A stretch of 64,000 nt of DNA, from contig CAZALU010000001.1 in NCBI GenBank assembly GCA_964486075.1, positions 207 through 64,206 of the forward strand, in the 5' to 3' direction. Origin of the DNA: an uncultured Verrucomicrobiota bacterium (GTDB taxonomy: Bacteria > Verrucomicrobiota > Kiritimatiellia > JAAZAB01). How positions within the stretch are numbered: position 1 is the first letter of the stretch; each line of letters begins with the position of its first letter. The notes under the pieces were generated by a model. The model made no database searches. It worked only from the letters and a program-made list of their open reading frames with translations, and was not told the origin of the DNA. The position numbers were made by a program, and so were the translations under genes. Of this stretch, positions 21,595 through 44,888 are shown piece by piece.

Positions 21595-21610
21595 TCATAA
21601 CTCAGTATCT

Positions 21611-23521
21611 TTACGATGGATCGGCCGGTGCGCCCCTTTTGATCCAAACTGATAGGATGGCAATATCGGCTGGATTAACTCCTGGAATACGAGAGGCTTG
21701 CCCAAGATTTTGCGGCTTTATTTTGGTCAATTTTTGGCGAGCTTCAGTTCTCAGCGCCCGAATTTTTTCGTACTCAAACCACGAAGGAATATCTTGATCA
21801 TCAAGATTTTGAGTCTTTTCAATAAGACTATTCTCCCTGGCAATATAGCCTTCGTATTTAATGCGTATTTCGACTTGCGTTTTGACTTCAGCTGACAGTG
21901 ACGGTAGCGATCCAGGCAGATCCTGGTAATGAACGTCATGACGTCTTAACATCTGGGCCAACGAACAGTTTCCTTGATGTACTGTTAATAACCTGTTCAC
22001 TTCCCTTTGAACTTCTATTTCTGCAGCCAGAGCATCCTCAATATCATTCCGGTGGACGATGCCTATTTTCTCAGCGAACGGTATCATCCTGTAAATTGCG
22101 TTATCCTGGCGAAGACTTAAACGATATTCGGCGCGTGACGTAAACATGCGGTATGGCTCATCTATCCCCTTGGTGATCAGATCATCAATCAGCACTCCGA
22201 TATACGCCTCGTTTCTACGAAAAATGATCGGATCTTGTCCGCGCACTTTTCTACTTGCATTTACGCCGGCCACAAAACCCTGGACGGCCGCCTCCTCATA
22301 GCCAGTGGTTCCGTTAATCTGTCCAGCGAAGAAAAGACCTTCTATGCGTTTCGATTCGAGGGACGCAGTTAATTGAGTCGGATCTGAATAATCGTATTCA
22401 ATTGCATAGGCCAGTTGAGTCAATTCTGACTTTTCCAATCCCGGGATGGAATGAACTAAATCTACCTGCACATCTTCAGGCAGACTGTTGGAAAGTCCGT
22501 TTGGATATATTTCGATTGAATCCCTGCCTTCAGGTTCAATAAAAACATGATGTTGACTCTTATCGTGAAATTTAACAATTTTATCTTCTATAGATGGGCA
22601 ATATCTGACCCCGGTGCTTGTGATTTGTCCGCCATAGAGAGAGCTTTCGTGCAAGTGTTCTCGAATAATGTCATGAGTTTGTGGAGTAGTATGAGTTAAA
22701 TAACAAGGCATTTGATCCGAACCAGGCGGCCAAGGGCGCATACAGGACTCATATTGTTCCACGTGGAACAATGCTTTCAAATCCGATTCTGACAAAGACC
22801 GCTGTTCCACGTGGAACATTCTCCAATCTTGCCTAGCCACATTGGAGAAAAACGTAGGCGGATTATTTCCAGGCTGAATCGTCATTTTGGAATAGTCTAT
22901 TGAGTTCTTATGAAGTCTGGCAGGAGTGCCAGTCTTAAATCTTTCAATAGAAAACCCCATTGTTTTTAGAGATTGGCTCAATTCTCCGGCGGTGTCTTCG
23001 TTTTTTCGTCCACCAGTAAAGCTAACTTTTCCGATATGAATTGTGCCCCTGAGGAATGTTCCAGGAGCCAATACGACGCTCTTGGCATAAATCATTTCAT
23101 TAGTCTTCGTGAGCACGCCACGCAATTTGCCATTATTTGCTATTATGCCAATTACCATTGCTTTAATGATTACCAAGTTTGGTGTATTGGATAAGATGGC
23201 AATCATTCGTGATGAAAAAAAAGATTTATCACATTGAGCTCGGCAGGCCTGGACTGCTGGTCCTTTTCTGGTATTCAACATTCGAAACTGAATGCCGGAG
23301 TAATCGGTATTCCTAGCAATCTCGCCGCCCAGTGAGTCTAGTTCAAATACCAAGTGAGATTTGGCTATGCCGCCTATGGAAGGATTGCATGACATTCTGG
23401 CGATGGATTGTTTATCGAGCGTGATCAGGGCGGTCTGTAGGCCCATTCTAGCGGAAGCCAGGGCCGCTTCATAGCCGGCATGACCGGCGCCAACGACGAT
23501 GATATCTAATAATGTACTCAT
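21611..23521 (-). CDS. mnmG: tRNA uridine-5-carboxymethylaminomethyl modification enzyme MnmG (GidA)
   Basis: VVGAGHAGYEAA, MSCNPSIGGIAK, RYCPSIEDK, FAGQINGTTGYEEAA, YRMFTSRAEYRL. Confidence 0.97.
   Translation of the reverse strand: MSTLLDIIVVGAGHAGYEAALASARMGLQTALITLDKQSIARMSCNPSIGGIAKSHLVFELDSLGGEIARNTDYSGIQFRMLNTRKGPAVQACRAQCDKSFFSSRMIAILSNTPNLVIIKAMVIGIIANNGKLRGVLTKTNEMIYAKSVVLAPGTFLRGTIHIGKVSFTGGRKNEDTAGELSQSLKTMGFSIERFKTGTPARLHKNSIDYSKMTIQPGNNPPTFFSNVARQDWRMFHVEQRSLSESDLKALFHVEQYESCMRPWPPGSDQMPCYLTHTTPQTHDIIREHLHESSLYGGQITSTGVRYCPSIEDKIVKFHDKSQHHVFIEPEGRDSIEIYPNGLSNSLPEDVQVDLVHSIPGLEKSELTQLAYAIEYDYSDPTQLTASLESKRIEGLFFAGQINGTTGYEEAAVQGFVAGVNASRKVRGQDPIIFRRNEAYIGVLIDDLITKGIDEPYRMFTSRAEYRLSLRQDNAIYRMIPFAEKIGIVHRNDIEDALAAEIEVQREVNRLLTVHQGNCSLAQMLRRHDVHYQDLPGSLPSLSAEVKTQVEIRIKYEGYIARENSLIEKTQNLDDQDIPSWFEYEKIRALRTEARQKLTKIKPQNLGQASRIPGVNPADIAILSVWIKRGAPADPS
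22755..22770. other. parS site
   Basis: Perfect 16-bp palindrome TGTTCCACGTGGAACA matching the parS consensus. Confidence 0.85.
22803..22818. other. parS site
   Basis: Second perfect TGTTCCACGTGGAACA, 48 bp from the first. Confidence 0.85.
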
Positions 23522-23732
23522 GTATACTAGTCAATGAATTATGTTAACAACGAAACACACGAAATTCACAAAAATATCGGACTTTATTTACATTCTGATA
23601 CCAATATTGTATTTCACCCCATGGGTATATCTTTGTCGGTGTGCCACGAACAATAATAGCTTAATCATCTGAATTTTAGTTTCGTATATGTTGTGTATTC
23701 CGTAGTTTAAAGGATATTTTCAGCTTGAGTGG

Positions 23733-25094
23733 TTATTTTCCAACACAGAATTTTGAAAAGATGGCCTTCAATAATTCTGAATTATATTGTTTGCCTATAA
23801 TCTCTCCCAAAGATATTGCTGCCATCCGAATATTAGCCGCCGCCATAACGATCATATCTTCTTGTTTTGTTTGCAGACTGTTTAACGATTCTTCAATTTC
23901 TTGCTGGGTTGAGATAATCATTTGCCTATGTCGCTCTGAAATTACGGCATGCGCTGGTTGGGATGAAATAGACCCGAGCTTACAAGCAATGGCTTGTTTA
24001 ATATCTGTCAGTCCGATCCCCGATATTAGGCATGTTTGTATTGTGTTAAAAGATTGATAATCAATTAATTGCAGTTGTTTGTGGAGATCGGATTTGTTTA
24101 ATACCACTATGCTGCGCTGACTATTCAACTCCAGAAGGTTGCCATAATCTTCTGCATCAAATACTTGTGAAAGATCCATGACATGCAAATGAATGTCGGC
24201 CTGACGCATCTGGAGCCTGGCTCGCCGGACGCCTTCATTTTCAATGTCACAGTCTGTGGTGCGCAAGCCGGCCGTATCAACAAGGCGGATTGGTATGCCG
24301 TTGAGGATCAATGTTTCTTCAATTATGTCCCGTGTTGTGCCCGGCGTGGCTGAAACAATTGCGCGCTCTTTACCGAGCAGCAGATTGAGCAATGTTGATT
24401 TCCCGACATTGGGCTTTCCTGAGATTACCACCAGGGCGCCTTCGCGCAACAAATGGCCTTCTTCCCATGTTTCCAGAAGGGCGGCTAGCTGGCCTTGCAA
24501 TGTTATCAGCTTTTTAATGACATCAGGAATCACGACCGGCGGAAGATCGTCCTCTGAAAAATCCAGGGTAGCCTCCAAATCGGCATTAGCATCCAATAAA
24601 TCATTATAAATAATTGTGAACAAACGACTTAGTTTGCCTTCCAGCTGTTCCAGGGCCGAGGATGCGGCGCGGTCGGAGCGAGCCCGGATCAGGTCCAAGA
24701 CCGCTTCGGCCTGCAGCAGATCGATGCGGCCGTTAAGAAAGGCTCGCTGGGTGAATTCGCCGGGATCGGCCAAACGGGCACCGGCGTTCAGCGTTGCCTG
24801 CAGGATCCGCCGGACCTGGATGTTGCCGCCGTGGCATTGTATTTCAACGACATCCTCGCGGGTGTAGCTGTGGGGCGCGCGCATGATGAGTAGAATCACC
24901 TCATCCAGAACCTCGGTCTGGCCTTTTATCCGGCCGTGGACGGCACTGAACGGAGGACGCCGGGACGGGGGCGGACTCGATCCGACAAACAGGCTATCGG
25001 CAATTGCCAGGCTAGTTGGCCCGGAAACCCGGATGACGGCAATTCCGGCCTCGCCCGGGGCGGTCGCGATTGCGGCTATGGTATCTTGATCCAT
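23733..25094 (-). CDS. mnmE: tRNA modification GTPase MnmE (TrmE)
   Basis: [60 protein letters not shown]-terminal FCVGK. Confidence 0.97.
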
Positions 25095-30349: not shown

Positions 30350-30580
30350 TTTGGAAAATAAATTATTCGCGAAAAGAGTACGGAAGTTCGTGAAAATCGG
30401 ACACGGTCGCGCCGCTGTGACCGGCTATCATCTTTCTCCGAGCGTATAGCGTTTCGCAGAAAGTGACCACTTCTCCGCCAAAGGGCGGGCTGTGGCGAAC
30501 CCTCATTAGCCACTGCGAGCTGCAAGGCAAGCGGGAAGGCGAGGGCGAGGATTGAAGCCGGAAGTCAGAAGACGTTTCTT
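30350..30580 (+). ncRNA. Cobalamin (AdoCbl) riboswitch
   Basis: AAGAGTACGGAAGTTCGTGAAAATCGGACACGGTCGCGCCGCTGTGA 5' core, GCCACTG...GGGAAGGC B12 box, 3' GCCGGAAGTCAGAAGAC. Confidence 0.85.
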
Positions 30581-30661
30581 TTCATGCTCATTAAAGCAAC
30601 GGTTGACAGCCGTTTTGACTCCTGCGCTTGAAAGGAGGAAATGAGGACATACATCGTCTTC

Positions 30662-30706
30662 AAACCTTCAGATTCCTCGCGTGGGAGTCTGAAGGTTTTT
30701 TTATTT
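30662..30706 (+). terminator. Rho-independent terminator (riboswitch expression platform)
   Basis: AAACCTTCAGATTCC-loop-GGAGTCTGAAGGTTT followed by a T-run. Confidence 0.85.
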
Positions 30707-30753
30707 ATGCTCAATACTATAAATCGTTTTTATAAGATGGCGCCCATGAGGAG

Positions 30754-33027
30754 ATGCCGATCGGCATGGCAAACAAACGGATAGCTAAGATTTATCTGAT
30801 CCTGGCGGCAAGTGTCGCCTGTATCGTCGGGCTGGCCTGCTTGTTCTCGGAAAAAACAGCGCGGGGTGATGAAGGTGGAGACGTACGTCACCACGCCCGC
30901 AGCGGGCGCGGCGCTGTTGCGCGTGGCTCCGGGAAATTGTCTGTCGCGGCAAGGGCCAGTCAAGCGCGCGAAAATAGCGGACCCCAAGACGGATTTGCCA
31001 GCCTAAATTCAAAATCGCAATTGACCGACCCGCCCGGCGCGCTAGATGAGAGCACCGCGCTCGCTGCTAACCAGACGGATGAGGAAGCGCCCACCCCCGC
31101 AACGATCGCCATGCGCAAGGAAACGCTCATGCGGGAAAGATTCGGCGTCATCTTTCGGCAGGACAAATGGATACCGACGGCCGGCGGCGGCACAAACCTG
31201 GTCTACATTACAACCGGATCGCTTCCGCCGAGCCGAGTTGGCGAAGTTTATAACGTGCAATTCCAAGCTACGAGTGGTTTTCCGCCTTACCTGTGGCGCA
31301 TCGTGGATGGTGAGCTGCCGCCATCGTTCGCGTTTGACGGTCCTTCCGGCAAACTCAGCGGGACCGCGGTCGAGCCGATCACAGCCAATTTCTTCCTTGA
31401 GGTAACGGACAGCAAGGGCGCCAGGGATGTGGCGGAATATGTGCTGATAGTGCAGCCGGAACGAGCCCTTGAAATCGTGACCGAGAGTCTGCCCGCCGCT
31501 TTGCCCGGTACGAACTACTTTTGCCAGCTACAAGCGATCGGAGGGATTCCGCCGTATATTTGGAGCGGAGCGGGCAACCTCAACGAAATAGGGATCCTGG
31601 TGCTCGATTCGCAAACAGGACAAATTCACGGGGAGATTTCGGCTGCCATCCCGGAAGTTGATGTCCCGCTGATTTTTTGTTTGAGCGACGCGCAGCTGCG
31701 TATTTCCAAAGAACTAGTGCTGCATGTTGCCGCCACCCTGCGCATATTAGAAATTCAGCCAATATCCACTCATGTAGCGGATCAGTTCGAGCTAACGTTG
31801 CAGGCAACCGGCGGAGCGGAACCATATATTTGGGGCGTCAGCGGAACGCTCCCGCCCGGACTTGAGTTTTCCACGGATGGTTTATGCTCGGGTCAGCCGT
31901 CGGAGCCAGGCACTTACGAAATTAATATCTGGGCGCAGGACACAGCCGGCCTGTTTGATACCGTGCAGATCGCGCTGGAGGTCTTGCCGTCCCCCGACGC
32001 GGTATCGGACTTTGCAGCCCTACTGAGCCGTAACAGTGTGGCCCTGAATTGGAAACTGCCGGCAACGAGCGGAGATATCGGCGTTCTGATTGTGCGTGGC
32101 GCCGCGGCAACTCCGCTGACGCCATTGGACGGTGTCACGGTGTATCACGGATCCGAAACCTCGTGCCTTGATCGCGATGTGGGCAAGGGTCGCCACTACT
32201 ATGCCGCGTTTCTTGAAAAAAACGGAACGACAGTAACGTCAGCATCGCCGTCGATAATCTGCGCGTCGCTGCCGCCCGAAATAGATCCGTTCGCGGACAA
32301 AGTCGTCAGCAAGAATCTACTGCATCCCAATGCCTTCAGGGCGCTCGATCTGCCGCAGATTGTCCTTGGCGCTCCTCGCGGCAAGGGACTGGCGTGGGGA
32401 TCAACGGATGTGCTCTCATTGGGCGCTGCCATCAACGACGACGGCGGCGCAACGGCCCCCTACGGCGGCACGATCACGTTGGAGTTCGTGGATAACGCCG
32501 TTTGGGACGGACCGGGCGTTGACTTTACGATTTTTGAAAATGTTTTCTATATTTGCGATGCCTCCGATGTGCCGGATCCTGAAACCCGCTTCATGGAACC
32601 GGCCGTGGTATCCGTCAGCCAGGATGGGGTGAACTGGCGGCAATTCAAGTTTGATTTCTCGCCGCGTTACGACCCCGCCAGCGGCATCCTCAATCTCCGA
32701 CATCCCTATTGCTACAATTCCGGATTTGCCGGAGTTAATCCTGTCATGAGCAACGGCTACGATCCGGATCCCACGGACCCGGCTCTGTCGGGAGGCGACA
32801 GTTTCGATCTCGCGGATGTAGGGCTGGACTGGATTCGTTACGTGTGCATCCAGTCCACGGGCAGCCGTTGGTTGATTGATCATGACGGCGATCTCGTTTA
32901 TCACAACGAGGAAACCGATGCGGCAACGCGCAGTAACAACAAGTCGGGCTTCGATCTCGACGCCGTGACGGCGATATGGATGACGAAGTTGTCGGCGGCC
33001 GGTGACATCAACGGCAAGTGCCCATGA
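30754..33027 (+). CDS. Membrane-anchored surface protein: three putative Ig (He_PIG) domains, an FN3-like domain and a C-terminal 'cell-surface' domain
   Basis: N-terminal TM; repeats such as ITTGSLPPSRVGEVYNVQFQATSGFPPYLW; C-terminal SLG..GGTITLEF..DGPGVDFTIFEN..EPAVVSVSQDG..GGDSFDL..GFDLDAV. Confidence 0.8.
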   Translation: MPIGMANKRIAKIYLILAASVACIVGLACLFSEKTARGDEGGDVRHHARSGRGAVARGSGKLSVAARASQARENSGPQDGFASLNSKSQLTDPPGALDESTALAANQTDEEAPTPATIAMRKETLMRERFGVIFRQDKWIPTAGGGTNLVYITTGSLPPSRVGEVYNVQFQATSGFPPYLWRIVDGELPPSFAFDGPSGKLSGTAVEPITANFFLEVTDSKGARDVAEYVLIVQPERALEIVTESLPAALPGTNYFCQLQAIGGIPPYIWSGAGNLNEIGILVLDSQTGQIHGEISAAIPEVDVPLIFCLSDAQLRISKELVLHVAATLRILEIQPISTHVADQFELTLQATGGAEPYIWGVSGTLPPGLEFSTDGLCSGQPSEPGTYEINIWAQDTAGLFDTVQIALEVLPSPDAVSDFAALLSRNSVALNWKLPATSGDIGVLIVRGAAATPLTPLDGVTVYHGSETSCLDRDVGKGRHYYAAFLEKNGTTVTSASPSIICASLPPEIDPFADKVVSKNLLHPNAFRALDLPQIVLGAPRGKGLAWGSTDVLSLGAAINDDGGATAPYGGTITLEFVDNAVWDGPGVDFTIFENVFYICDASDVPDPETRFMEPAVVSVSQDGVNWRQFKFDFSPRYDPASGILNLRHPYCYNSGFAGVNPVMSNGYDPDPTDPALSGGDSFDLADVGLDWIRYVCIQSTGSRWLIDHDGDLVYHNEETDAATRSNNKSGFDLDAVTAIWMTKLSAAGDINGKCP

Positions 33028-33188
33028 CAAAAATTTATACCAAAGCTCGATCCGATCCGTAAAGGAGGTGCTGTAAATAGATTGTAAACTGCAAGTGTAC
33101 CCAGGGCAGTTCGCGAACATCGCATGCGCTGGCATTGCCGTGATCGGCTGCGACCTCTCGAAAAAAACCAAACACAGGAGCAAACACG

Positions 33189-34949
33189 ATGAAATCAAAG
33201 TTAAAGTTGGTGCTGGGCTTATGCCTGGTAACGTTCGCTACACAAACGTTCGCCATGGTCATAGGCGGTAGTAATTATTTAGTGCAAACATTTTACGAGA
33301 ACCCGCACGCAGGCGAAACGTTGGTGGCGTTTGACTGGGGTGACAATAACAACCTATACTACTCGACCGGGCGACCGGATTGGGGATTGGGATTATCCAT
33401 TTACCGGTACGATGGCGCCACGGCATTGAAGCTGTACACGGATGAGAACGCGTTCGCCGGAAGCCGTGTGACCGTGATCGGCGGCCGTATTTACTTCAAC
33501 GACGGCGGGACATATGACCGTTGGACTTGCGACTACTACCGCTATGACCCGGTGCACCCGTCCGCGCCGGTGAATATAGGCGTGCTGAGCGACATCAGTG
33601 GACTTGAGACGCGCACCGGAACCGATTTTTGGGCCGCAGGTGGCTGGAACGCCGCGATCTATTATAGTACTCTGAATGCGGATGGCGATCTGCTGAGCAA
33701 CCCGTTGGTGAATCTCGGCACGATCGGGAACGCAAGCGGTCCGATCGTTTTTGATAAGGATGGCAATCTCTACTACGTGGAAGGCTATGTCGCAGAGGGC
33801 AAGCCAACCGTGTACCGCTGGAGCGCCGCGGAAGTAGCCGCGGCCATCGCCGACCCCGCGGGTAATCCGTTGAGCCCGGACGGCCATACATGGGCGTCCC
33901 TGTCATCGGGCGATGGAGCCTCCGGCATGGTGGTGGACAACAAGGGGCACTTGGTGGTTACTGCGACGTCGTTCACTGATCCCAGCCAGTTACAGCGTCT
34001 GTTCGTGACCAACGGCATCTACGCAGGCTATGAGGTGCTGGCCCGTTCGGACGAGCGCCTGGAATCCGTCCGTTTGCGCGCCGGCAGAATCTACGTCAGT
34101 TCTTCCGCAGGAATATGCGCCGTTCTCCCCATGCAGGCGGATACCCACGTTATTAACGACTATGACTATGACGGCAAGTCTGACCTGGCGGTTTACCGGG
34201 CCGGCTATTGGTCCATCTATTCCCTGGAGAACGGCATTATCCTTAACAACGTTGGCGTTTGGGGAGAGTCGGATTCCATTGCGGTGCCGGGAGATTATGA
34301 CGGCGACGGCAAGGCTGATCTGGCGGTTTACCGGGCCGGCTATTGGTCCGTCTATTCCTTGACGAACGGTATTATCCTCGATAACGCCGGGATATGGGGC
34401 GAAGCGAACTCTATTCCGGTGCCGGGAGATTATGACGGCGATGGCAAGTCTGACCTGGCCTTGTATCGCGACGGCATTTGGTCCATCTACATGATGGGTA
34501 GCGGTGAGACCCTCTCCGGCCCCTTTGGCGAAGCGGGCTGCACGCCGGTGCCGGGGGATTATGACGGCGATGGCAAGGCCGACCTAGCCTTGTATCGCGA
34601 CGGCATTTGGTCCATCTACATGATGGGCAGCGGAGATATCCTCTCCGGCCCCTTTGGCGAAGCGGGCTGCACGCCGGTGCCGGGAGATTATGACGGCGAT
34701 GGCAAGTCTGACCTGGCCTTGTATCGCGACGGCATTTGGTCCATCTATATGATGGGTAGCGGTGAGACCCTCTCCGGCCCCTTCGGCGAAGCGGGCTGCA
34801 CGCCGGTGCCGGGGGATTATGACGGCGACGGCAAATCCGATCTGGCCTTGTATCGTGACGGTTATTGGGCCATCCGTTCCCTGAAGAGCGGCGTGATCCT
34901 CGACGCTGCCGGGGAGTGGGGCGGGCCAGACTCCGTTCCGGTTAAGTAG
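33189..34949 (+). CDS. Secreted protein with probable beta-propeller N-terminus and C-terminal FG-GAP-like repeats
   Basis: SD CAGGAG, signal peptide, blade-like motifs (IVFDKDGNLYYVE, MVVDNKGHLVVT), six DYDxDGKxDLA repeats. Confidence 0.8.
   Translation: MKSKLKLVLGLCLVTFATQTFAMVIGGSNYLVQTFYENPHAGETLVAFDWGDNNNLYYSTGRPDWGLGLSIYRYDGATALKLYTDENAFAGSRVTVIGGRIYFNDGGTYDRWTCDYYRYDPVHPSAPVNIGVLSDISGLETRTGTDFWAAGGWNAAIYYSTLNADGDLLSNPLVNLGTIGNASGPIVFDKDGNLYYVEGYVAEGKPTVYRWSAAEVAAAIADPAGNPLSPDGHTWASLSSGDGASGMVVDNKGHLVVTATSFTDPSQLQRLFVTNGIYAGYEVLARSDERLESVRLRAGRIYVSSSAGICAVLPMQADTHVINDYDYDGKSDLAVYRAGYWSIYSLENGIILNNVGVWGESDSIAVPGDYDGDGKADLAVYRAGYWSVYSLTNGIILDNAGIWGEANSIPVPGDYDGDGKSDLALYRDGIWSIYMMGSGETLSGPFGEAGCTPVPGDYDGDGKADLALYRDGIWSIYMMGSGDILSGPFGEAGCTPVPGDYDGDGKSDLALYRDGIWSIYMMGSGETLSGPFGEAGCTPVPGDYDGDGKSDLALYRDGYWAIRSLKSGVILDAAGEWGGPDSVPVK
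34426..34860 (+). repeat. Intragenic 129-bp (43-aa) tandem repeat, about 3.3 near-identical units
   Basis: GDYDGDGK(S/A)DLALYRDGIWSIYMMGSG(E/D)(T/I)LSGPFGEAGCTPVP at a 129-nt period. Confidence 0.9.
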
Positions 34950-35182
34950 CAATCAGGAGCTGAACAACAATAAGGTGTCCGCCAATTAGCGAATATTCCT
35001 TAACCCGATATTGAAGCAGTCACTCTTCGGACTGGATGGCGGATAAAGCAGGTGTTGCCGGCTTCGTAAAATATGTGCGGGCTCTCGCGGTCTATACGCG
35101 GGAGCTCGCCTTGAGGCCCAAGGGATAAGCGCTCCCGACGGCAGTGGTGTGTTTTTGTAAACTTATGCGGCGGTTAACCACT

Positions 35183-38104
35183 ATGTGTAACACATCAACT
35201 AATAGCGTTACGTTGCCGGCCAGGCGTGTCCATGTCATTGCCTGCGGCGTGCTCGCGCTGGATATCAATGCCATCGTGAAGCGGCTGGGTCTTGAGGTGA
35301 CCGTGACGTTTCTGCCGGGCGGCTTGCACAATAACCCTCGCGAATTGCAGACGCGTCTGCAACGCGCGGTGGACGATGCGTCCGCCAACGGCAGCAGCGA
35401 TCTGATCGCCATCGGCTATGGCGTGTGCGGACGTGGAACCGTAGGCCTGCGGGCGGGCGCCGTGCCGCTGGCCATTCCGCTGGTGCATGACTGCATCGCG
35501 CTCTTTCTGGGATCCGACCGGGCCTATAGCGAACAATTCGCCAAATATCCCGGCACCTACTATGTCTCCGCCGGCTGGGTCGATGAGAAAGTACGTCCAT
35601 GGAGTGCGCAGGAGCAGGAAACCGCCGAATGCCGCAGCCCCATCGAATACGATTTCGAACGGCTGGTGTGCCAGTATGGCCAGGAGCACGCGCAGGCCAT
35701 TCGGGAATTCGTCACCAGTTGGCATCGTAATTACCAGCGCGCCGCTTTCATTGACACTGGCGAACAGTCGGTCCGCCGCGCGCGCTACGCGGGCATGGCG
35801 CAGGCCATGGCCGCTGAATTCGGCTGGAAATACGAAGAAATCTCCGGCACACACGAGCTGCTGACGCAGTTGCTCACGACCCAGGAGTCCAGCGATAGCA
35901 TTCTAATCGTGCCGCCGGGGCATATGACGATCTACGATGGCGTACGTCGGCGGATGCGAGCAGTCCCCGTGCAGGAGTGCGCGGAAGCGCCGCCCGAGCC
36001 GACCCTGCTGGTGTATGACGAGCCGCCAAAGCGCGAGATTAAACCCCGGCAGGAAATGGTGCGCCTCGGGATGGGCATCGACGCCGGCGGAACCTACACG
36101 GACATCGTCATCTACGATTTTGAGAGCCGGTCCGTTCTGCAGAAGGCCAAAAGCCTCACGACGCCGTGGGATTATGCGATCGGGATCAATACCGCGCTTG
36201 ACCGGATCGATGGCAAACGATTCGCACAGGTTGACTTGATCTCTGTTTCCACAACTTTGGCCACCAATGCTATTGTGGAGGGGCGCGGCCAAAAAGTGGG
36301 ACTGCTGCTCATGCCGCCCTATGGCTGGCGCGACCCGGAAAATTTCACGCACAACCTGATCGCGCTCATCGCAGGGCAGCTCGCAATTGACGGCCGAGAA
36401 CTGGCGGCGGTTGATCCCGACCAGGTGCGGCGCTCCGTGCGCGATATGCTGGAGCGTCAGGGCGTCAAGGCCCTGGCCGTGGCGGGCTATGCCAGCCACG
36501 TCAATCCCTCCCACGAGATGCAAGTCAAGGCGGCAATCCGCCAGGTGACCGATTGCGTCGCGACCTGCGCGCATGAGGTCTGCGGGGGCATGGATTATCG
36601 CATTCGCGCCGAGACAGCCGTTCTCAACGCGCAGATTATTCCTTGTCTCGAAGCGTTTCTTGCCAAGCTGCAGAGCACCCTCCAGTGCCGCGGGCTGAAT
36701 GCGCCCGTTATGGTCGTTAAGAGCGACGGCTCCCTAATGAGCCTTGAGGCCGCGTGCCAACGCCCGATCGAGACGATTCTCTCCGGGCCCGCCGCCAGCG
36801 CGACCGGGGCCGGCTACCTCACAGGCCTGCCCGAGGCGATCATCGTTGACATCGGCGGCACAACGACCGACACGGCGACGATCCGCGGCGGGGCAGTCCG
36901 AACCTGTGCTGACGGCGCCACGGTGGGTCGATGGAAGACAAACGTCGAGGCCCTGGATATGCGCACGCTCGGTTTGGGAGGCGACAGCCAGATAGCCTGC
37001 GTCGAGGGCAAACTGCGAATTGGTCCGCAACGTGTAGCGTCGGTCGCGTGGCTTGCGAGCCAGCACCCGCGAACAGGCGAAGCGTTAATGTGGTTGGAGC
37101 ATCACCTGAACCACTTTATAGTGGCCACGCGGGGCATGGAGCTGCTGACCCTCACGCCATACAGGCACCGTCGCCTGCATGACCAATCGGAAAAGCGCGT
37201 TGTGGAAATTCTGAAGGAGCGCCCCTACTCGGTGGACGAATTGATCGAACGCACACAATGCATGGCCGAACATTTCCTGCCGTTGGGAGTGTTGGAGGAA
37301 GACCACATCATTCAGCGCTGCGGCCTGACGCCGACGGATCTGTTACATGCCGCCGGCCGGCTGGACCTGTGGGATGCCGATGCCTCGCGCCGACTGTGCG
37401 ATATGTACGCCTGCCTGATGCGCCTGGATCGGGCCCGTTTTATCGAACAGGGACAAGACCACTTCGTGCGTCTGTTGGCGCTTGAGCTGCTGAAGAAACA
37501 GCTTGCCGACGAGATTGACCCGGAGACGATTGAAACGTCGCCAGCCGCCATGGCCCTGATTGACAGGGCCTTGAGCGGGGAGAGCGACGGGTATAGCGTG
37601 CAAATCACGTTGAAGGCACCCGTGATCGGCATCGGCGCCCCGGCCCATTTCTTCCTGCCGGAGGCGGCGCGACTTTTGCGTGCCGAGGCCATCATTCCGG
37701 CTCACGCCGACGTCGCCAACGCCGTCGGCGCCATCACCAGTCTCGTGCGGATTCACCGCTCCGTAACAATTGCCGTTGATGAAAAGGGCCTCTACCGCTT
37801 GGAGGGCCTGCCGGAAACGCCCAGCTTCGGTAACATCGAGGCCGCGCAGGAGTTTGCCGTCGAACAATTGCGGAATATGGTTAAAAATCTAGGCCGCCAG
37901 GCAGGAACCGCCGCCTTGAAGGTAGAGGTTCGGATCAATGACCGCATGGGCTCACTGAAGGATGGTCAGCAGCTATTCCTTGGACGCACGGTGGCTGCCT
38001 GCCTGACCGGACGTCCGGCCTTGGCCCGCTTGGGCGCGACGCCTGATGCCGCGCCATCGGCATCTTTCCGACAAGGTGCGGATGATGGCACCGCAGGCGT
38101 TTAG
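35183..38104 (+). CDS. DUF1638 domain fused to a hydantoinase/oxoprolinase (ASKHA) domain
   Basis: N-terminus VIACGVL..GLHNNP..GYGVCG..HDCIALFLGS..GTYYVSAGW; C-terminus GIDAGGTYTD, TILSGPAAS, VDIGGTTTD, NAVGA. Confidence 0.85.
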   Translation: MCNTSTNSVTLPARRVHVIACGVLALDINAIVKRLGLEVTVTFLPGGLHNNPRELQTRLQRAVDDASANGSSDLIAIGYGVCGRGTVGLRAGAVPLAIPLVHDCIALFLGSDRAYSEQFAKYPGTYYVSAGWVDEKVRPWSAQEQETAECRSPIEYDFERLVCQYGQEHAQAIREFVTSWHRNYQRAAFIDTGEQSVRRARYAGMAQAMAAEFGWKYEEISGTHELLTQLLTTQESSDSILIVPPGHMTIYDGVRRRMRAVPVQECAEAPPEPTLLVYDEPPKREIKPRQEMVRLGMGIDAGGTYTDIVIYDFESRSVLQKAKSLTTPWDYAIGINTALDRIDGKRFAQVDLISVSTTLATNAIVEGRGQKVGLLLMPPYGWRDPENFTHNLIALIAGQLAIDGRELAAVDPDQVRRSVRDMLERQGVKALAVAGYASHVNPSHEMQVKAAIRQVTDCVATCAHEVCGGMDYRIRAETAVLNAQIIPCLEAFLAKLQSTLQCRGLNAPVMVVKSDGSLMSLEAACQRPIETILSGPAASATGAGYLTGLPEAIIVDIGGTTTDTATIRGGAVRTCADGATVGRWKTNVEALDMRTLGLGGDSQIACVEGKLRIGPQRVASVAWLASQHPRTGEALMWLEHHLNHFIVATRGMELLTLTPYRHRRLHDQSEKRVVEILKERPYSVDELIERTQCMAEHFLPLGVLEEDHIIQRCGLTPTDLLHAAGRLDLWDADASRRLCDMYACLMRLDRARFIEQGQDHFVRLLALELLKKQLADEIDPETIETSPAAMALIDRALSGESDGYSVQITLKAPVIGIGAPAHFFLPEAARLLRAEAIIPAHADVANAVGAITSLVRIHRSVTIAVDEKGLYRLEGLPETPSFGNIEAAQEFAVEQLRNMVKNLGRQAGTAALKVEVRINDRMGSLKDGQQLFLGRTVAACLTGRPALARLGATPDAAPSASFRQGADDGTAGV

Positions 38105-39403: not shown

Positions 39404-40090
39404 TTAACACCAATAGGATGCAATGCGCTCAGAATTAGAGGTGTTTTCAACGATTATTCCATTATCAAGTACGATAAAACGACGGCATACCCTGCGCGCG
39501 AAGTCAAGGTTATGAGTTGCCATCAGCAGTGTGGTGTTCAGGCCAATAAGCAATTCGGCTAGTTCTGCTCTGCCGACCGGATCCAGCGCCGCCGAGGGTT
39601 CGTCGAGCAACAACAGCGGCGGATCCGCAACCAGCACGCCGGCCAGGGCCACACGCTGCAGTTGTCCGTGTGAGAGACGATGGGGCGAATGCAAGGCCAG
39701 TTTGGCGATGCCAAGCTTCTCCATCATCGGCAAAGCTTTAGCGCGCGCTTCCGTGCGGGACAAACCCCGGCGTTCCAATGTGAAGGCAATATCGTCAATC
39801 ACGCTTGGAAACAGGATCTGATCATCGGGAATGCCGAACAAAAAGCCTGCCTGATCTCGAATCTGCCGTGTGGTTGCCTTAGATAGAGGGATATCGCACA
39901 CCGTAATTGCCCCATCAAACGGAACCAGGCCCACGGATGCATACAAGAGGGTGGTCTTGCCGGACCCGTTGAGACCCAGCAGGGCCACCCGCTCGCCCGG
40001 AGCGATAGCCAGCGAAATCCCATTAAGAACGGGCGCATCTTCCGGCCGATATCTCGCCGAGACGTTCTGAAAGGTTAGAGCAGAGTTCAT
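39404..40090 (-). CDS. ECF transporter ATPase (CbiO/EcfA)
   Basis: GLNGSGKTT, PDDQILFPSVIDDIAF, LSHGQLQRV, LLLDEP, ATH. Confidence 0.9.
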   Translation of the reverse strand: MNSALTFQNVSARYRPEDAPVLNGISLAIAPGERVALLGLNGSGKTTLLYASVGLVPFDGAITVCDIPLSKATTRQIRDQAGFLFGIPDDQILFPSVIDDIAFTLERRGLSRTEARAKALPMMEKLGIAKLALHSPHRLSHGQLQRVALAGVLVADPPLLLLDEPSAALDPVGRAELAELLIGLNTTLLMATHNLDFARRVCRRFIVLDNGIIVENTSNSERIASYWC

Positions 40091-40836
40091 AAACCATCCG
40101 CCCATCTGGCCGTGATGCTTGCGCCAAGCAAGAGGATCGTGGTGGTCACGGCCAACACATCCAAGATGGAGACGGCTGCCGGCGTTGTCCGGACGGTGAC
40201 CTCAAATCCGCGCAGATCCATGGCGACGGCAACGCGTTCGGCGCGATTCATGATTCGCAGGACCCAAATGGCGGGGAAAGCGCCAAGAACCCTTAATCTC
40301 ATCGTCAGCCTCGACGGCAAGCCGCGTATCCGCAGAGCGGATGAGATGCGCCCAGTTTCATTGGTAAGCATCGCGGTTTGGTGAACGATTTGCATGATTA
40401 GAATTGCCATCGTGCGCGGCACAGGCAATCCGCCCAGCGCCGTGCCCAGCTCAGCAAAATCAAGGGTCGCTATGGTGGCCGCGCAAATAAAAATACATCC
40501 TGTGCCGCGGATGCCGATTTCCAACGGCACTCGCACTGCGCCGAACCAATGGCTGCTTGCCGTATGCGGGGGGGGCACCCAAGGCGTGAGCAGAAACAAG
40601 GGCAGGAATAAAATACCGGCGTATAGCAACAAGCCGACCAGGTTTTTTCTGGGAACGCCACACAGCCATACCCAGCCGACAACAGCGCCGCAGACAAGTG
40701 CCATGCCCAGCGGCTGATGCAGGGGAGCGAAGAGGCAACTTATAAAAACGATCAGCCCGCAAGCCACGCGCGCGGATGGCGTCAAGCTCTGCATACGGCG
40801 ACTGCCTGAACCCCAGAATTCAAGGAACGCTGTCAC
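40087..40836 (-). CDS. ECF transporter T component (CbiQ/EcfT)
   Basis: TM helices; coupling motifs SALRIRG and RAERVAVAMDLRGF. Confidence 0.85.
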   Translation of the reverse strand: MTAFLEFWGSGSRRMQSLTPSARVACGLIVFISCLFAPLHQPLGMALVCGAVVGWVWLCGVPRKNLVGLLLYAGILFLPLFLLTPWVPPPHTASSHWFGAVRVPLEIGIRGTGCIFICAATIATLDFAELGTALGGLPVPRTMAILIMQIVHQTAMLTNETGRISSALRIRGLPSRLTMRLRVLGAFPAIWVLRIMNRAERVAVAMDLRGFEVTVRTTPAAVSILDVLAVTTTILLLGASITARWADGL

Positions 40837-40840
40837 CGGT

Positions 40841-41461
40841 CTATCCTTTCTTGCGGGCTGTTATAATATAGCTATGTTCATCATCGGTCGTGGAAATAAC
40901 GTTGAATCGGTTCCGCTCGAGCAGCTGCGCGGTCTCGTCAGCGCAAACAAGATGATCATGTCTGACGGAAGGATGCACTTTTGCATGGATCCGATTGACC
41001 TGCGCCCGCGAAATCAAGTGCACTATGTGCAGATGGCTTTCCGGCCGCAGTACGCGGTGCAATTCTTTGGCGACAGCCGCGTGATTCTCAAAGTGAGGCC
41101 ATACCGAGAAGCAGATGATCCGATCTATGCTAGCATCCTCAAAGGGAATCTTTTCGGCTGATGCGTGATGCCAACTGGCGCGCACATCATCCGCTTTTCT
41201 CCGCGCCAGCGCAAGCATCCGGGTCGAAATGTCCAACGCCATAACGCGCCCTGCCGACCCAAGCCTTCGCAAAAGCGCCTTGGTAAGATTGCCAGTGCCG
41301 CAACCGACGTCAAGCACAACCTCGCTGGCATTGATATCGAATTGCGCAAGACAAGCATCAAGATCATGGGCTACAAGGGACAGATCGAACCCGGCGTCCC
41401 ATGTGTCGGCGAGCGCATCGAAAAACTCTATGCGGGGATCGGAAATAGGACTTGTTTTCAT
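40841..41461 (-). CDS. Class I SAM-dependent methyltransferase
   Basis: EFFDALADTWD, VLDVGCGTG, ALDISTRML, ELHRVLRP; ATG 41461 overlaps the upstream stop. Confidence 0.88.
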   Translation of the reverse strand: MKTSPISDPRIEFFDALADTWDAGFDLSLVAHDLDACLAQFDINASEVVLDVGCGTGNLTKALLRRLGSAGRVMALDISTRMLALARRKADDVRASWHHASAEKIPFEDASIDRIICFSVWPHFENHAAVAKELHRVLRPESHLHIVHLISRAQVNRIHAKVHPSVRHDHLVCADETAQLLERNRFNVISTTDDEHSYIITARKKG

Positions 41462-41979
41462 CGAGGAGGTTTCTTTATAGGCACATAACCCTTTGATAAG
41501 CGCACGATCGCCGGAATAGCGAAAAGCATAAGTATAATGCCGGGCCAGCCGCTCAGCAAAGAGATTCCTGCGATAAATGTAGCCGGCAGCCCCATATAAA
41601 GCGCTGCCAGATACAAAAGCCCGGCGCCAACAACCCTGCCGTAGATGAGTATTGGTATCAAAAGAATCAACACCGGCGCGCGCGGAAACCAGGCATGGAA
41701 GATGCCAATCAGGATCGCCATGAGGGATAATTCCACTGACATAGTCGGCGCCACCGGCGGATATAACGGCGGCATGCCTGTGACGGCGCCGGATAACAGT
41801 GGGACGACGAAGGCCGTCAGCGCAGATGCGCCTGGCCGCACAAAAAAAGCCAATGCCACCAACGGTAAGTACATAGGCATGAAAATGTGGCCGAGGTGAA
41901 TCAAGTGAAACAATATGGGCAGCAGCAGGGCGATGGCTCCAAACAGCCCGCAATAGGCAAATTCTCGATTGGTCATCAT
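41458..41979 (-). CDS. ECF transporter S component-like membrane protein
   Basis: Hydrophobic 173 aa; LLLPILFH...FMPMYLPL...PLLSGAVTGMPP...SWPGIILML pattern of ECF_trnsprt proteins. Confidence 0.72.
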   Translation of the reverse strand: MMTNREFAYCGLFGAIALLLPILFHLIHLGHIFMPMYLPLVALAFFVRPGASALTAFVVPLLSGAVTGMPPLYPPVAPTMSVELSLMAILIGIFHAWFPRAPVLILLIPILIYGRVVGAGLLYLAALYMGLPATFIAGISLLSGWPGIILMLFAIPAIVRLSKGYVPIKKPPR

Positions 41980-43925
41980 TAAAACTTCAGGTGCGCGCCT
42001 GAGAAAATGCTTGTCCCGGGCATCGGATAGCCGGGTAGAAACTCATAATTTTGATCGGTCAGATTTTCCAGGGCAACGTACAGTTCGCCCGGAATATTGG
42101 TCCAAGTCTTAATATCCAGCGTGATCTTGGCATTAGCCACAAAATATCCGTCAATTTCTTTAAGGTCCTCCGGTGCCGGCGCTCCGGAACGGCCATTATA
42201 GGCATACTGATCGGCAACGTATTCCGCGTCCAGGTCCACTTTGACATTCGGCAAAATCTTGAGCGACACACCGGCGCTGACGCTCACCTTCGGCGAACGG
42301 GGTGTTTTAGCATACTCCGGATGCATCAAAGTCAGTCCGGCAAAACATGACAGCCGCTCCCATGGCGTAAGATGCAACGACGTCTCCCACCCGTCGACCG
42401 CCTTTTTACCCGTATTCAGCAAGCCGTTTGGCGTAACCTCCAGCAGGTTATCGCCGTTCATGTGAAAAATCGAGGATTGTAAGGCGGCCAACTTAGAAAC
42501 ATCCCAGTGGATGCCACCCTCGGTATTATCCATCACCTCGGCTTTTAATTGGTCCATCGTCGACGCGGAGGTACCTTTGATATAGATGCCCGGGTAATTT
42601 ACGCCGCGCGATTGGGATAAAAAGAACGTCAAGGTGTCTTTAGTCGCCGCGAGGGAGGCGCAGGGTGCCAATTCGTTCTCAAACTCACTGCTGATGTAAT
42701 AGCGTCCGCCGACTGAGGGTGTGATCGTGACGTCCTTGACCGGTAAGGCGTAACGCGCGCCCAGGTACGGCGCCACGGTCACGAAAGTGCCCTTGAACTG
42801 GAACGGCACCTTGCCGGAAAGAGTCGTGTTTTTCGATTCTCCGCTGTCCGCCCCCGCATCCAGTCCGGCCGTCAGAGTCCATTGGTCTATCAGCACATCA
42901 TACAGCGAGCGAACCCCGTAATTATCCCAGTCCGTATCGGAGCTCCCCGGGGGAGAGGTGTTGTCGCCGTCCGCCAAATGATCCTTTTTCCAGCGGATTT
43001 TACCATCATCGAGATAAAAAAGGGCAAAGCCCTGGACGAAGTCACTGCCTGTATCCAAACGCAAGCCCTGCGTCAGGGTTTCGGTGGCGAATTTATTCCT
43101 GATGGGAGTCGGCTGGTCAATGGGGCCGGGATCGAGCGCCCAGTTGTCGGTTCGGTGCAGAATATAGGACACATGATTGTCATCTGCGAGATCCACGCCT
43201 AATCTCAAATACTGCCCATCCAGGTTTGCGGCCGAATGCGCGCGTTGGCCCTGCGATTCTTTGTGATAGGCGCCGCCGTAATAATCGAACAGGTCTATTT
43301 TTCCGCCGGTCATCAGCGATCCCAGCCACGTTTGATAACTGCCGTAACCGGCATTGATCTCGGTTTCATACCCCGGCTTTTTGCGCCGCAGGGACTGGAT
43401 ATCCACCGCGCCAAACGTGCCGGAATAAGCTTGCGGCTGCGGCCCCTTGGAGACGGAGACCGAATCCGCGAAATCTACCGGTGTCATATCCAGCAGCGGA
43501 TGATTCCAGGCACCTGACTCGCGCGGAATACCATCCGCATAAATCCTGATTTCACTGCCGGGCCGCCCGGCGCCCTCGCCCCGGATATAAATAGAGCCGC
43601 CATCCGCTCCGCCGTAGGCGCCCAACGGGTTGAAACGTGCGATGGTCACCCCGGGTACGCTGCGCAGGGCGGTCGACAGCTCGCGAGCGTCCAAGCGCTC
43701 GATTTGACTGCGGCCCACTTCCGATACTACGCCGCCGGCCGGCCGGACCGTTTCGCGGGCCGTTATCGGCGGCGCCGTCACCAGGATTTCTGGCGTATCG
43801 CTGATCGATGCCTCTGCCGCCAGATCGATATTTGACATCTGCGCCCCGGCGATGACGCCGCAGAACAGCACGCTCGCACAGACCTGGAACCGCACCCCAC
43901 ATCGCCCAAACATCATTGCACGCAT
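41979..43925 (-). CDS. TonB-dependent receptor
   Basis: Signal peptide, TonB box EILVTA, plug (LRSVPGV, SIYIRG, IYADGIP, VSVSKGP), LENLTDQNYE..GYPMPG, terminal Phe. Confidence 0.92.
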   Translation of the reverse strand: MRAMMFGRCGVRFQVCASVLFCGVIAGAQMSNIDLAAEASISDTPEILVTAPPITARETVRPAGGVVSEVGRSQIERLDARELSTALRSVPGVTIARFNPLGAYGGADGGSIYIRGEGAGRPGSEIRIYADGIPRESGAWNHPLLDMTPVDFADSVSVSKGPQPQAYSGTFGAVDIQSLRRKKPGYETEINAGYGSYQTWLGSLMTGGKIDLFDYYGGAYHKESQGQRAHSAANLDGQYLRLGVDLADDNHVSYILHRTDNWALDPGPIDQPTPIRNKFATETLTQGLRLDTGSDFVQGFALFYLDDGKIRWKKDHLADGDNTSPPGSSDTDWDNYGVRSLYDVLIDQWTLTAGLDAGADSGESKNTTLSGKVPFQFKGTFVTVAPYLGARYALPVKDVTITPSVGGRYYISSEFENELAPCASLAATKDTLTFFLSQSRGVNYPGIYIKGTSASTMDQLKAEVMDNTEGGIHWDVSKLAALQSSIFHMNGDNLLEVTPNGLLNTGKKAVDGWETSLHLTPWERLSCFAGLTLMHPEYAKTPRSPKVSVSAGVSLKILPNVKVDLDAEYVADQYAYNGRSGAPAPEDLKEIDGYFVANAKITLDIKTWTNIPGELYVALENLTDQNYEFLPGYPMPGTSIFSGAHLKF

Positions 43926-44037
43926 TGCCTATGCTCCTGTGTATACCTTGTTGATATTCCGGTTGCGCGGCCGCTGCCATCCGCCAACCCGTTAGCGTCA
44001 TGCCGCCGGCATAGTCCATGCCGTGCTGCGTAAAAAA

Positions 44038-44064
44038 ATAACACGTAATCATAATACGTAACAC
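44038..44064 (-). promoter_or_regulatory. Candidate NikR operator upstream of the TBDR operon
   Basis: On the minus strand GTGTTAC-N13-GTGTTAT, with a pseudo-palindromic spacer. Confidence 0.4.
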
Positions 44065-44228
44065 TGCGCAAGAAAAAAATGCAGGATTTTGGCTGGCAAA
44101 GGCTTATGCAATAATCTTGTTTTCGTGTATTTGCGCGACATCGTAAAGGTGTCGCCTTGGAGTGCGGCAGAGTGCCATTTTTTTAGGTTGAATCAGGCCT
44201 ATCGGGTGGGCAAGGGCGGATGGGACGA

Positions 44229-44642
44229 TCAGGAGAGCCGCTGGCCGAGTGTGCCGGCTGCCAGCGCGACGTGCTTTAAGCCTTTCACGGCCTTGAGGCT
44301 TTTGACCATGGCGTTGATCGCATGCGGCTTTCCGCGGACAGTGACAGTCTCCAGGCAGTTGTCATGATCGAGATGCACGTGCTGCGTTGAAATAATCAAG
44401 TCATGGCTTTCATGTTGGAGCGCTGTCAGTTTGCGGAGCAAATCCGGCTTGTGGTGATTATACACCAGCACAATTGCCCCGGCCACTTCGTTGCCTTCCA
44501 GCCATTCTGTCTCGACCAGACTTTTTCTGATAAAGTCGCCGATAGCTTTGGAGCGGGTCGGACAACGTTCGCTCCGCAGTTTGCGATCGAATTTCTCCAA
44601 CAAACTTTGATCAAGTGATATACTGAAACGTACCAACGCCAT
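44229..44642 (-). CDS. nikR: Nickel-responsive regulator NikR
   Basis: RHH start LVRFSISLD, RSKAIGDFIR, Ni site LQHESH..STQHVHLDHDNCLE. Confidence 0.93.
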   Translation of the reverse strand: MALVRFSISLDQSLLEKFDRKLRSERCPTRSKAIGDFIRKSLVETEWLEGNEVAGAIVLVYNHHKPDLLRKLTALQHESHDLIISTQHVHLDHDNCLETVTVRGKPHAINAMVKSLKAVKGLKHVALAAGTLGQRLS

Positions 44643-44888
44643 TCTAACCTCATTTCCATTTTGTTTTACGTAAATCGTAGCATGACGGGCCCGGAACGAC
44701 AAGGCGGTTTCTGCCAGGGCAGCCTATCGTTTGGCTCGCGCTCTCTTTGCCGTTGACGAAGTCTTATGAGAGCGTTAGCATTCAAGCATACATAAGACGA
44801 GGACGGCCATTTTTGTCGTTACCAGGCATGGCGTCATAAATAATGCAGCATATTGGCAATCTGGTATGCCGAACGGAGCGAGGAATCT

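Follow-up and report, generated by a model that had tools for sequence, protein, structure and literature searches.

A cobalamin riboswitch precedes genes for a BtuH-like protein and an unnamed propeller protein in a Kiritimatiellia genome: a candidate corrinoid-capture pair

What does a cobalamin (B12) riboswitch control when no B12 transporter lies behind it? The question arises in a 64-kb stretch of contig CAZALU010000001.1 (the window), from an uncultured Verrucomicrobiota bacterium of the class Kiritimatiellia, in which such a riboswitch is followed by three genes that we call g1, g2, and g3. A preliminary description of this DNA had proposed that the three genes form one unit, an undescribed surface module for scavenging corrinoids in a Planctomycetes-Verrucomicrobia-Chlamydiae (PVC) lineage. 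Accessory extracellular B12-capture proteins are a major fitness determinant in Bacteroides and, to our knowledge, have been studied almost only there; many PVC bacteria live by degrading polysaccharides and rely on others for their B12. Our analysis points to a narrower answer: g1 and g2 probably form a B12-repressed two-gene operon for a cell-envelope corrinoid-capture pair, with g3 independent of it. We read g1-g2 as a capture module because of four lines of evidence: (i) conservation of the riboswitch ahead of the pair, (ii) fusions between the domains of the two proteins, (iii) linkage to BtuB-like receptors, and (iv) remote homology of g1 to the B12-binding protein BtuH.

An Rfam covariance-model scan confirmed the proposed riboswitch. 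The Cobalamin family RF00174 matches positions 30358-30595 of the plus strand with 48.0 bits (gathering score 31.5; E = 6e-9), and the match to the aptamer spans the model from end to end (positions 1-189). A permissive re-scan of the whole window found no second riboswitch-like element even at E ≤ 1, and none ahead of g3. The terminator described 3' of the riboswitch was also recovered: the terminator scan called a 16-bp hairpin with a loop of 5 (30662-30698) followed by a U-run, TTTTTATTTAT, giving an expression platform at 30662-30708 on the plus strand, 67 nt past the aptamer and 46 nt ahead of the g1 start codon. This hairpin is the dominant element of the leader fold, present in both the minimum free energy and centroid structures (z = -3.3). 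Since cobalamin riboswitches are known to work in this way, we predict that aptamer and terminator together act as a transcriptional OFF switch when B12 is bound.

Three co-oriented open reading frames (ORFs) follow on the plus strand, with the domains named in the preliminary description. g1 (30754-33027) encodes a BtuH-like exported protein of 757 aa, in which an N-terminal hydrophobic segment is followed by He_PIG Ig-like repeats (52 bits) and a C-terminal region of ~250 aa. g2 (33189-34949) encodes a secreted two-domain protein of 586 aa, with a signal peptide of the signal peptidase I (SPI) type (aa 1-22), an N-terminal beta-propeller, and ~7 C-terminal FG-GAP/VCBS-like repeats that match FG-GAP and FG-GAP_3. 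g3 (35144-38104, with a likely start at ATG 35165 or 35183) encodes a fusion of DUF1638 with a hydantoinase-type ASKHA ATPase. We refer to the C-terminal domain of g1 (aa 500-757; 32251-33024) as A2 and to the propeller of g2 (aa 23-325; 33255-34163) as A1. A terminator scan of both spacers found no canonical terminator, as had been noted earlier. The g1-g2 spacer, of 161 nt, is unstructured, and the g2-g3 spacer, of ~195-233 nt, holds a perfect 13-bp GC-rich hairpin without a U-run at ~35076-35114; this hairpin may act as a U-less terminator or stabilize the RNA, or it may be a repeat.

We surveyed A1-encoding loci in one genome per GTDB species, which gave 53 loci, and annotated each with Rfam scans and with ORF and hidden Markov model maps. 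We note that the ORF maps are mechanical (longest ORF, greedy), and that single gene boundaries in these loci may be off. The closest relatives of g2 lie in Kiritimatiellia metagenome-assembled genomes (MAGs), at 77% identity, which bears out the PVC assignment; A1 loci extend to other Verrucomicrobiota, Hydrogenedentota, Planctomycetota, Lentisphaerae, a Pseudomonadales MAG, and others. A same-strand Cobalamin riboswitch at or above the gathering score lies upstream of A1 or A2 genes in 37 of the 46 evaluable distinct loci. The riboswitch with the pair recurs in 36 loci besides the window and in at least five phyla, with riboswitch scores of up to 118 bits; the loci with this arrangement belong to Kiritimatiellia, Verrucomicrobiota, Planctomycetota, Hydrogenedentota, and some Proteobacteria. 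The two loci closest to the window, L008 and L010, carry a He_PIG protein gene and then an FG-GAP protein gene, each locus with a riboswitch upstream, and the distant A1 genes of L012 and L013/L014 stand directly behind riboswitches of 93-108 bits. Among the culturable carriers in the survey, Engelhardtia mirabilis Pla133 (L061) has a riboswitch, and Thalassobacterium maritimum SDUM461003 (L038) and Geminisphaera colitermitum TAV2 (L049) have none. Several loci carry more than one riboswitch: one before each gene of the pair in L019 (209-406 and 2834-3001), two in tandem in L016 (2708-2889 and 3062-3309), and a second one farther down the cluster in L051 and L054 (near 9900-10150), before a downstream A2 gene or a TonB-dependent receptor gene.

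A2 genes adjoin A1 genes in most loci, on either side, and the g1-g2 gene order is kept in L008, L010, L015-L023, and L025. The two domains also occur in one polypeptide in 11 of 101 A1 proteins (seven A1-A2 and four A2-A1); apparent A1-A2 fusions in L051 and L054 hold an internal PEP-CTERM-like motif, may each be two genes, and were left out of this count. We distinguished three operon types. The Kiritimatiellia type, to which the window belongs, consists of a riboswitch, A2 on an Ig stalk, and A1 with an FG-GAP tail, and it usually ends there, the next gene being on the opposite strand in L010, L015, L019-L023, and L025. In the Proteobacteria type (L013/L014 and L035), the riboswitch is followed by A1, a TonB-dependent receptor, A2, and an FKBP gene. 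The L013 receptor has the TonB-B12 model TIGR01779 among its best matches (151 bits, below the equivalog cut-off), and TonB-B12 is the top match (178 bits) of the receptor behind the second riboswitch of L054. The neighborhood survey of homologues that the preliminary description had called for thus turned up both the riboswitch and BtuB-like receptors (L013/L014, L035, and L054) around relatives of the pair, and loci of the g3 family without a riboswitch (see below).

The third type, found in Verrucomicrobiota and Planctomycetota, consists of a riboswitch, A1, A2, and a conserved prepilin-type N_methyl (GspG/DUF1559-like) protein of ~270 aa. Genes for this protein lie at 8164-8943 in L039, 8330-9154 in L041, 2919-3740 in L045, 8197-9021 in L048, 8017-8802 in L053, 5543-6409 in L063, 6886-7635 in L065, and 11164-12060 in L012, and the proteins are 33-62% identical among operons. 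A full-length relative (25-34% identity) is encoded at 9029-9829 in L003, ahead of a btuF/btuC/btuD-like operon that neighbors a g3 homologue; no homologue of the prepilin-type protein is encoded in the window. A pseudopilin-like protein thus occurs in putative B12 uptake loci of both kinds, operons of this type and L003.

The A2 domain supplies the link to BtuH. No Pfam family covers this region of g1 or of 41 A2 members, a search with g1 aa 500-757 returned 282 relatives without a Pfam family, and single-sequence and first-generation profile searches of PDB sequences found no match. The AlphaFold2 (AF2) model of A2 has a mean predicted local distance difference test (pLDDT) score of 92.7, and its sole Foldseek match at E ≤ 1e-3 is chain 8blw_B, BtuG1 of Bacteroides thetaiotaomicron (E = 9e-6). 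In BtuG1, a BtuG propeller and a BtuH-type B12-binding domain of ~250 residues are joined in one protein (PMC10404256). A diversified A2 profile built from 39 sequences of all operon types (A3) matched residues 386-639 of 8blw_B, the H-domain, at E = 1.1e-10 in a HMMER search of PDB sequences. This segment is in turn 49% identical (E = 2e-54) to the B12-binding domain of BtuH2 in PDB entry 7BIZ; Pfam has no model that covers the BtuH domain itself. Alignment of A3 with BtuH2 and BtuG1 by hhalign (95.7%, E = 9e-9) comprised 95 columns, corresponding to residues 10-125 of the g1 domain. By these profile and structure matches, A2 is a remote homologue of the BtuH B12-binding domain and forms a remote branch of that domain superfamily.

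The site residues of BtuH2 were mapped onto A2 with the 7BIZ chain numbering, which equals the published numbering minus 100. We checked Gln-333, Phe-334, Asn-399, Phe-401, Glu-406, Tyr-475, His-476, Tyr-510, Asp-522, Trp-577, Ser-582, and Glu-584. In BtuH2, Asn-399 and Glu-406 are metal ligands, Phe-401 stacks on the corrin, and Tyr-475, His-476, and Tyr-510 form hydrogen bonds with it (PMC13616437). Asn-399 aligns with N97 of A2, which is invariant, and Glu-406 with E116, which is kept in 40 of 41 members. An N-x-F motif is common to both families at the position of Phe-401, and A2 has an aromatic residue no more than one column from Phe-334; the alignment did not extend to the C-terminal ligands Asp-522, Ser-582, and Glu-584. 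Further acidic residues conserved in A2 (D91, D125, D183, D186, D235, and D237) would be compatible with a metal site. The A2 domain is shared by the LIC_13355 lipoprotein family of NCBIfam (NF033170; g1 aa 505-694, E = 7e-13, a weak family match). The published role of Leptospira LIC_13355 is limited to the binding of host components (PMC11891782); its A2 domain suggests that it may be a corrinoid-binding lipoprotein. We also considered membership in DUF4465, the BtuJ family, and rejected it, as neither g1, g2, nor any of the 41 A2 members matched.

The propeller of g2 is a different case. Its AF2 model (pLDDT 91.7) is all-beta and, because it has 24 strands, is predicted to have about six blades. 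Neither Pfam nor NCBIfam has a family for the A1 domain. Foldseek returned only generic propellers, with template modeling (TM) scores of 0.5-0.6 and with lectins as the best structural neighbors, and BtuG was absent from the best 50 matches. Against PDB sequences, single-sequence and first-generation profile searches of A1 found nothing, and profile searches gave only marginal matches to the blade motif of DFPase. The BtuG family model PF16819 did not match g2 and reached only one of 51 A1 members (E = 0.18). We rejected assignment of A1 to the BtuG family on these three grounds. A word-indexed search with g2 aa 23-325 returned 24 relatives, and an exhaustive profile search of 1.84 billion representatives placed the propeller in ~88 clusters (50% identity) at E ≤ 1e-30; weaker matches of the profile cover the FG-GAP tail only. 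By these searches, A1 is a distinct, unnamed, and rare beta-propeller family. Tandem A1 propellers, in three or two copies, occur in single proteins (P0265, 894 aa; P0266, 924 aa). Elsewhere in the window, a 967-aa protein on the minus strand (14939-17842) joins a serine beta-lactamase/transpeptidase-like domain to C-terminal FG-GAP repeats resembling the g2 tail, and therefore hints at the FG-GAP array as a reusable envelope-anchoring or display module in the source organism.

Signal peptides occur throughout both the A1 and A2 families, and a PEP-CTERM sorting signal is present at the C-terminus of 43 of the 51 stand-alone A1 proteins. Because of these signal peptides and anchors, we place A1 and A2 proteins in the cell envelope or on the cell surface. 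The N-terminus of g1 matches a lipobox pattern (Cys23/Cys29), yet its hydrophobic stretch is long enough for a signal anchor; g1 orthologues have Cys-containing N-terminal hydrophobic segments.

We then asked whether g3 belongs with the pair. Its Pfam matches are to DUF1638 (PF07796; 121 bits against a gathering score of 27, residues 56-244), Hydant_A_N (104 bits), and Hydantoinase_A (121 bits), and its family comprises more than 120 full-length DUF1638-ASKHA fusions of 51-72% identity, mostly from Planctomycetota and Phycisphaerae MAGs. In the fusion contexts examined (L001-L007 and one further contig), URO-D (MtaA-like) genes recur as neighbors, and one of them overlaps the fusion start codon in L006; L003 also has a btuFCD-like transporter, and L002 has CbiA. 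With 79 further g3-family loci from a metagenome scan, 84 were analyzed altogether. The fusion is present in 31 of them and a stand-alone ASKHA protein of ~670 aa in 50, with a separate DUF1638 gene nearby in four of the latter. We clustered the neighboring ORFs of the 84 loci and named the cluster representatives. The neighbor families include B12-binding corrinoid proteins (17 loci), MttB methyltransferases (13), pterin-binding/MtrH proteins (11), URO-D (9), and RACo/RamA (5); these associations come mostly from stand-alone ASKHA loci and are rarer in fusion-type loci. Genetic data show that a split B12-dependent MetH requires DUF1638 along with a RamA-like protein (PMC5764234). Because of these neighbors and of the DUF1638 genetics, g3 is most likely a cytoplasmic accessory factor of corrinoid methyltransferase systems and a candidate activation or maintenance factor for corrinoid proteins. 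In 16 diverse fusions (alignment A5; 35183-38104 in the window), the DUF1638 domain has invariant His17, Cys21, His49, Cys82, and Asp103-Cys104; this pattern suggests a metal or Fe-S site that would be a counterpart to the ferredoxin domain of RACo/RamA.

This B12 connection is one reason to consider a three-gene operon, in which the riboswitch would also control g3 and couple surface capture to intracellular corrinoid handling. g3 is co-oriented with the pair and begins 195-233 bp 3' of g2, neither a canonical terminator nor a promoter-like site was called in the spacer between them, and relatives of g3 keep company with corrinoid methyltransferase genes and, in L003, with btuFCD-like genes. 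Conservation argues for the opposite: in ten related Kiritimatiellia-type loci g3 never follows the pair, its place being taken by an opposite-strand or unrelated gene (in L008, by a gene for a 1003-aa protein without DUF1638). Conversely, no g1- or g2-like gene was found in the g3-family contexts examined (L001-L007 and one further contig), and ~75 kb of g3-family loci (L001-L007), which served as a control, contained no Cobalamin riboswitch; we therefore rejected the riboswitch as a general companion of the DUF1638-ASKHA gene. The stable 13-bp GC hairpin in the g2-g3 spacer also speaks against a three-gene operon, and shutting off a maintenance factor for corrinoid enzymes at high B12 would make no obvious physiological sense. 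We regard a three-gene operon as unlikely, and the unit as first described did not survive the comparison: g3 appears to be a B12-related but functionally separate unit from g1-g2.

Several observations weigh against corrinoid capture by the pair itself. Nine of the 46 loci have no same-strand riboswitch (L036, L037, L038, L041, L043, L046, L048, L049, and L060; in L043, the riboswitch is divergent). Neither the window operon nor the DNA next to g1-g2 encodes a TonB-dependent receptor or B12 transporter. A TonB-dependent receptor gene nearby (41979-43925, minus strand) is an unlikely candidate for the cognate BtuB, as it belongs to a NikR/CbiQ/CbiO cluster that runs opposite to the pair and its match to the B12-receptor model is weak; it is more likely part of a NikR-linked nickel/cobalt system. 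A1 has no detectable relationship to BtuG or BtuK, and the role that we assign to it comes from context alone. The homology of A2 to BtuH is remote: the Foldseek TM score to BtuG1 is only 0.42, BtuH2 itself is missing from the A3 profile matches at E ≤ 10, the hhalign match covers only the N-terminal half of the domain, and the alignment shows no evident A2 equivalents of BtuH2 Tyr-475, His-476, and Tyr-510. Lastly, g1 may be anchored in the inner membrane by its N-terminus, in which case the protein would be periplasmic rather than exposed on the cell surface.

With these points in mind, we considered whether g1 and g2 could instead be B12-regulated surface adhesins or glycan binders that bind no corrinoid and, for example, attach the cell to B12-producing partners or to particles. 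FG-GAP and He_PIG modules are typical of adhesins, lectins are the top structural neighbors of the g2 propeller, and the Leptospira relative LIC_13355 reportedly binds host components (PMC11891782). Aside from BtuG1, the structural neighbors of A2 are carbohydrate-binding jellyrolls of the CBM32/discoidin type. However, these Foldseek matches are weak (E > 1e-3) and those of the propeller are generic, whereas the sequence homology of A2 is specifically to the BtuH B12-binding domain, with two metal-site ligands kept, and the genes are set around BtuB-like receptors under the same riboswitch. We consider an adhesin role quite improbable. Chance juxtaposition of a relic or irrelevant riboswitch with unrelated surface protein genes, which the modest score in the window (48 bits) and a somewhat divergent B12-box region might suggest, is effectively refuted by the comparative survey, given the recurrence of the arrangement in 36 other loci and at least five phyla at scores of up to 118 bits, and by the intact terminator 3' of the aptamer.

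We therefore favor a B12-repressed corrinoid-capture pair, which would work as follows. At low intracellular cobamide, the aptamer would be empty, the terminator would not form, and g1 and g2 would be made. g1 would carry its BtuH-type corrinoid-binding domain on the tip of an N-terminally anchored Ig-like stalk, and g2, a secreted propeller with an FG-GAP tail, would be the partner of that domain in the position of BtuG or BtuK, where it would bind corrinoids as well or serve in hand-off or docking. Together they would trap corrinoids, when these are scarce, on the outer side of the cytoplasmic membrane and deliver them to an outer- or inner-membrane transporter encoded elsewhere in the genome. 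With sufficient B12, transcription would stop at 30698-30708. Separately, g3 would act as a cytoplasmic ATPase that assists methyltransferase systems in the loading, reactivation, or upkeep of their corrinoid cofactor. The surface corrinoid-scavenging module of the preliminary description is in this form well supported for g1 and g2, by the conserved riboswitch, the fusions, the BtuB-like receptors, and the BtuH homology, and given up for g3. A broader proposal is more tentative: A1 might be an unrecognized corrinoid-binding or relay family that, with the divergent BtuH-type domain, is the principal accessory system by which PVC bacteria, Hydrogenedentota, and others capture B12, and that in Verrucomicrobiota and Planctomycetota feeds a non-canonical envelope route dependent on the pseudopilin-like protein.

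The remainder of the window offered several further observations. The cluster that contains the TonB-dependent receptor mentioned above (39404-44702, minus strand) also encodes NikR (44229-44702), CbiQ (40087-40836), and an ECF-type ATPase (39404-40105). Between CbiQ and the receptor lies a gene (40841-41953, minus strand) for a 370-aa protein with an S-adenosylmethionine (SAM) methyltransferase C-terminal half and an N-terminal ~200 aa without a family. The whole resembles a cluster for nickel/cobalt uptake under NikR control, in which a methyltransferase fusion takes the place expected for a CbiM/N-type component. An ORF at 18262-19674 joins a DruA-like region to DDE transposase domains, and the DNA at 20000-24000 is low in GC (0.43-0.49, against ~0.57 elsewhere) and contains a weak URO-D-like gene (20473-21594, 24.1 bits) and mnmG; this may be an insertion or mobile-element boundary. 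Finally, an AbiEii-type nucleotidyltransferase toxin gene (10286-11137, minus strand) overlaps an upstream ORF of 213 aa without a Pfam match (11134-11775), and the two are probably a type IV toxin-antitoxin pair.

What would such a module add to the picture of B12 acquisition? The BtuH-type domain, in divergent form, extends to Kiritimatiellia, Verrucomicrobiota, Planctomycetota, Hydrogenedentota, and some Proteobacteria, in all of which its partner is always the unnamed A1 propeller; that propeller, although rare, is among the protein families most consistently linked to a riboswitch. The two small, well-folding domains A1 and A2 are candidate cobamide binders, and the module would offer a handle on how PVC bacteria acquire B12. 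It also offers a functional name for hundreds of hypothetical proteins and a hypothesis for Leptospira LIC_13355. The widespread DUF1638-ASKHA fusion, for its part, is now tied to corrinoid methyltransferase systems.

How do these proteins compare with characterized ones? g3 joins a DUF1638 domain, known as a stand-alone protein in PGA1_c13340, to an ASKHA ATPase, the class to which the RamA/RACo reductive activators and GlmL/MutL, the glutamate mutase accessory protein, belong; all of these serve corrinoid enzymes, and relatives of the g3 ATPase are encoded beside corrinoid-protein genes. It differs from RamA/RACo in that its ASKHA domain is of the hydantoinase_A type, with neither a RACo_C_ter/DUF4445 nor a Fer2 domain; true RACo genes occur as separate neighbors of its stand-alone ASKHA relatives. 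Its resemblance to GlmL/MutL is confined to the N-terminal ~50 ASKHA residues and falls short of both models (PF13941, 21.8 bits against 27; NF040745, 28.8 against 475).

Among the accessory B12 binders, BtuG, BtuH, BtuJ (DUF4465), and BtuK have been characterized in Bacteroides, and DUF4465 has been extended to other phyla (PMC13398666, PMC13616437). As DUF4465 proteins show, accessory B12-binding proteins are in use among PVC bacteria (PMC13398666). These jellyrolls, which include the Verrucomicrobial D5EK51 and a Planctomycete Mucisphaera protein, are exported, linked to a B12 riboswitch, and found outside Bacteroidota (PMC13398666), as is the module described here, but they belong to a different family from g1 and g2. 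With BtuG and BtuK, g2 shares a beta-propeller beside, and in relatives sometimes fused to, a BtuH-type domain under a B12 riboswitch; L013 and L035 are the only loci in which an A1 gene immediately precedes the gene for a BtuB-like receptor. In contrast, BtuG (PF16819) and BtuK are seven-bladed lipoproteins, whereas A1 has about six predicted blades and no sequence relationship to them, and the g2 family carries an SPI-type signal and an FG-GAP or PEP-CTERM tail with no lipoprotein signal.

The closest parallel is BtuH. BtuH2 has Ig-like domains followed by a C-terminal binding domain (PMC8941943), and reports of BtuH cover gut Bacteroidota and three Firmicutes (PMC8941943, PMC13616437). Like BtuH2 (BT1956, PDB 7BIZ) and the H-domain of BtuG1 (BT1490, PDB 8BLW), g1 combines an Ig-like stalk with a homologous C-terminal domain of ~250 aa, keeps the equivalents of the metal-site residues Asn-399 and Glu-406, lies at a locus with a B12 riboswitch, and has a propeller partner that is fused to it in relatives, as in BtuG1. 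The differences are substantial: the homology is very remote and was detected by the diversified profile only, Tyr-475, His-476, and Tyr-510 lack clear equivalents, and the stalk consists of PKD domains in BtuH and of He_PIG repeats in g1. The g1 anchor is an N-terminal hydrophobic segment, with PEP-CTERM in relatives; the window operon has no btuB, a receptor being present in the operon only in the distant L013/L014 and L035; and the g1 family occurs in phyla outside Bacteroidota. The literature that we searched contained no prior description of this module in PVC bacteria, which is no proof of absence. The earlier claim of an undescribed system holds for the propeller family, which is unnamed, and less so for g1, which carries a divergent BtuH-type domain in a pairing, with fusions, that mirrors BtuH and BtuG. 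Judged from its domains, a propeller with an H-domain behind a B12 riboswitch, sometimes in one polypeptide, appears to be the same in kind as BtuG/BtuH, with A1 as a new partner family.

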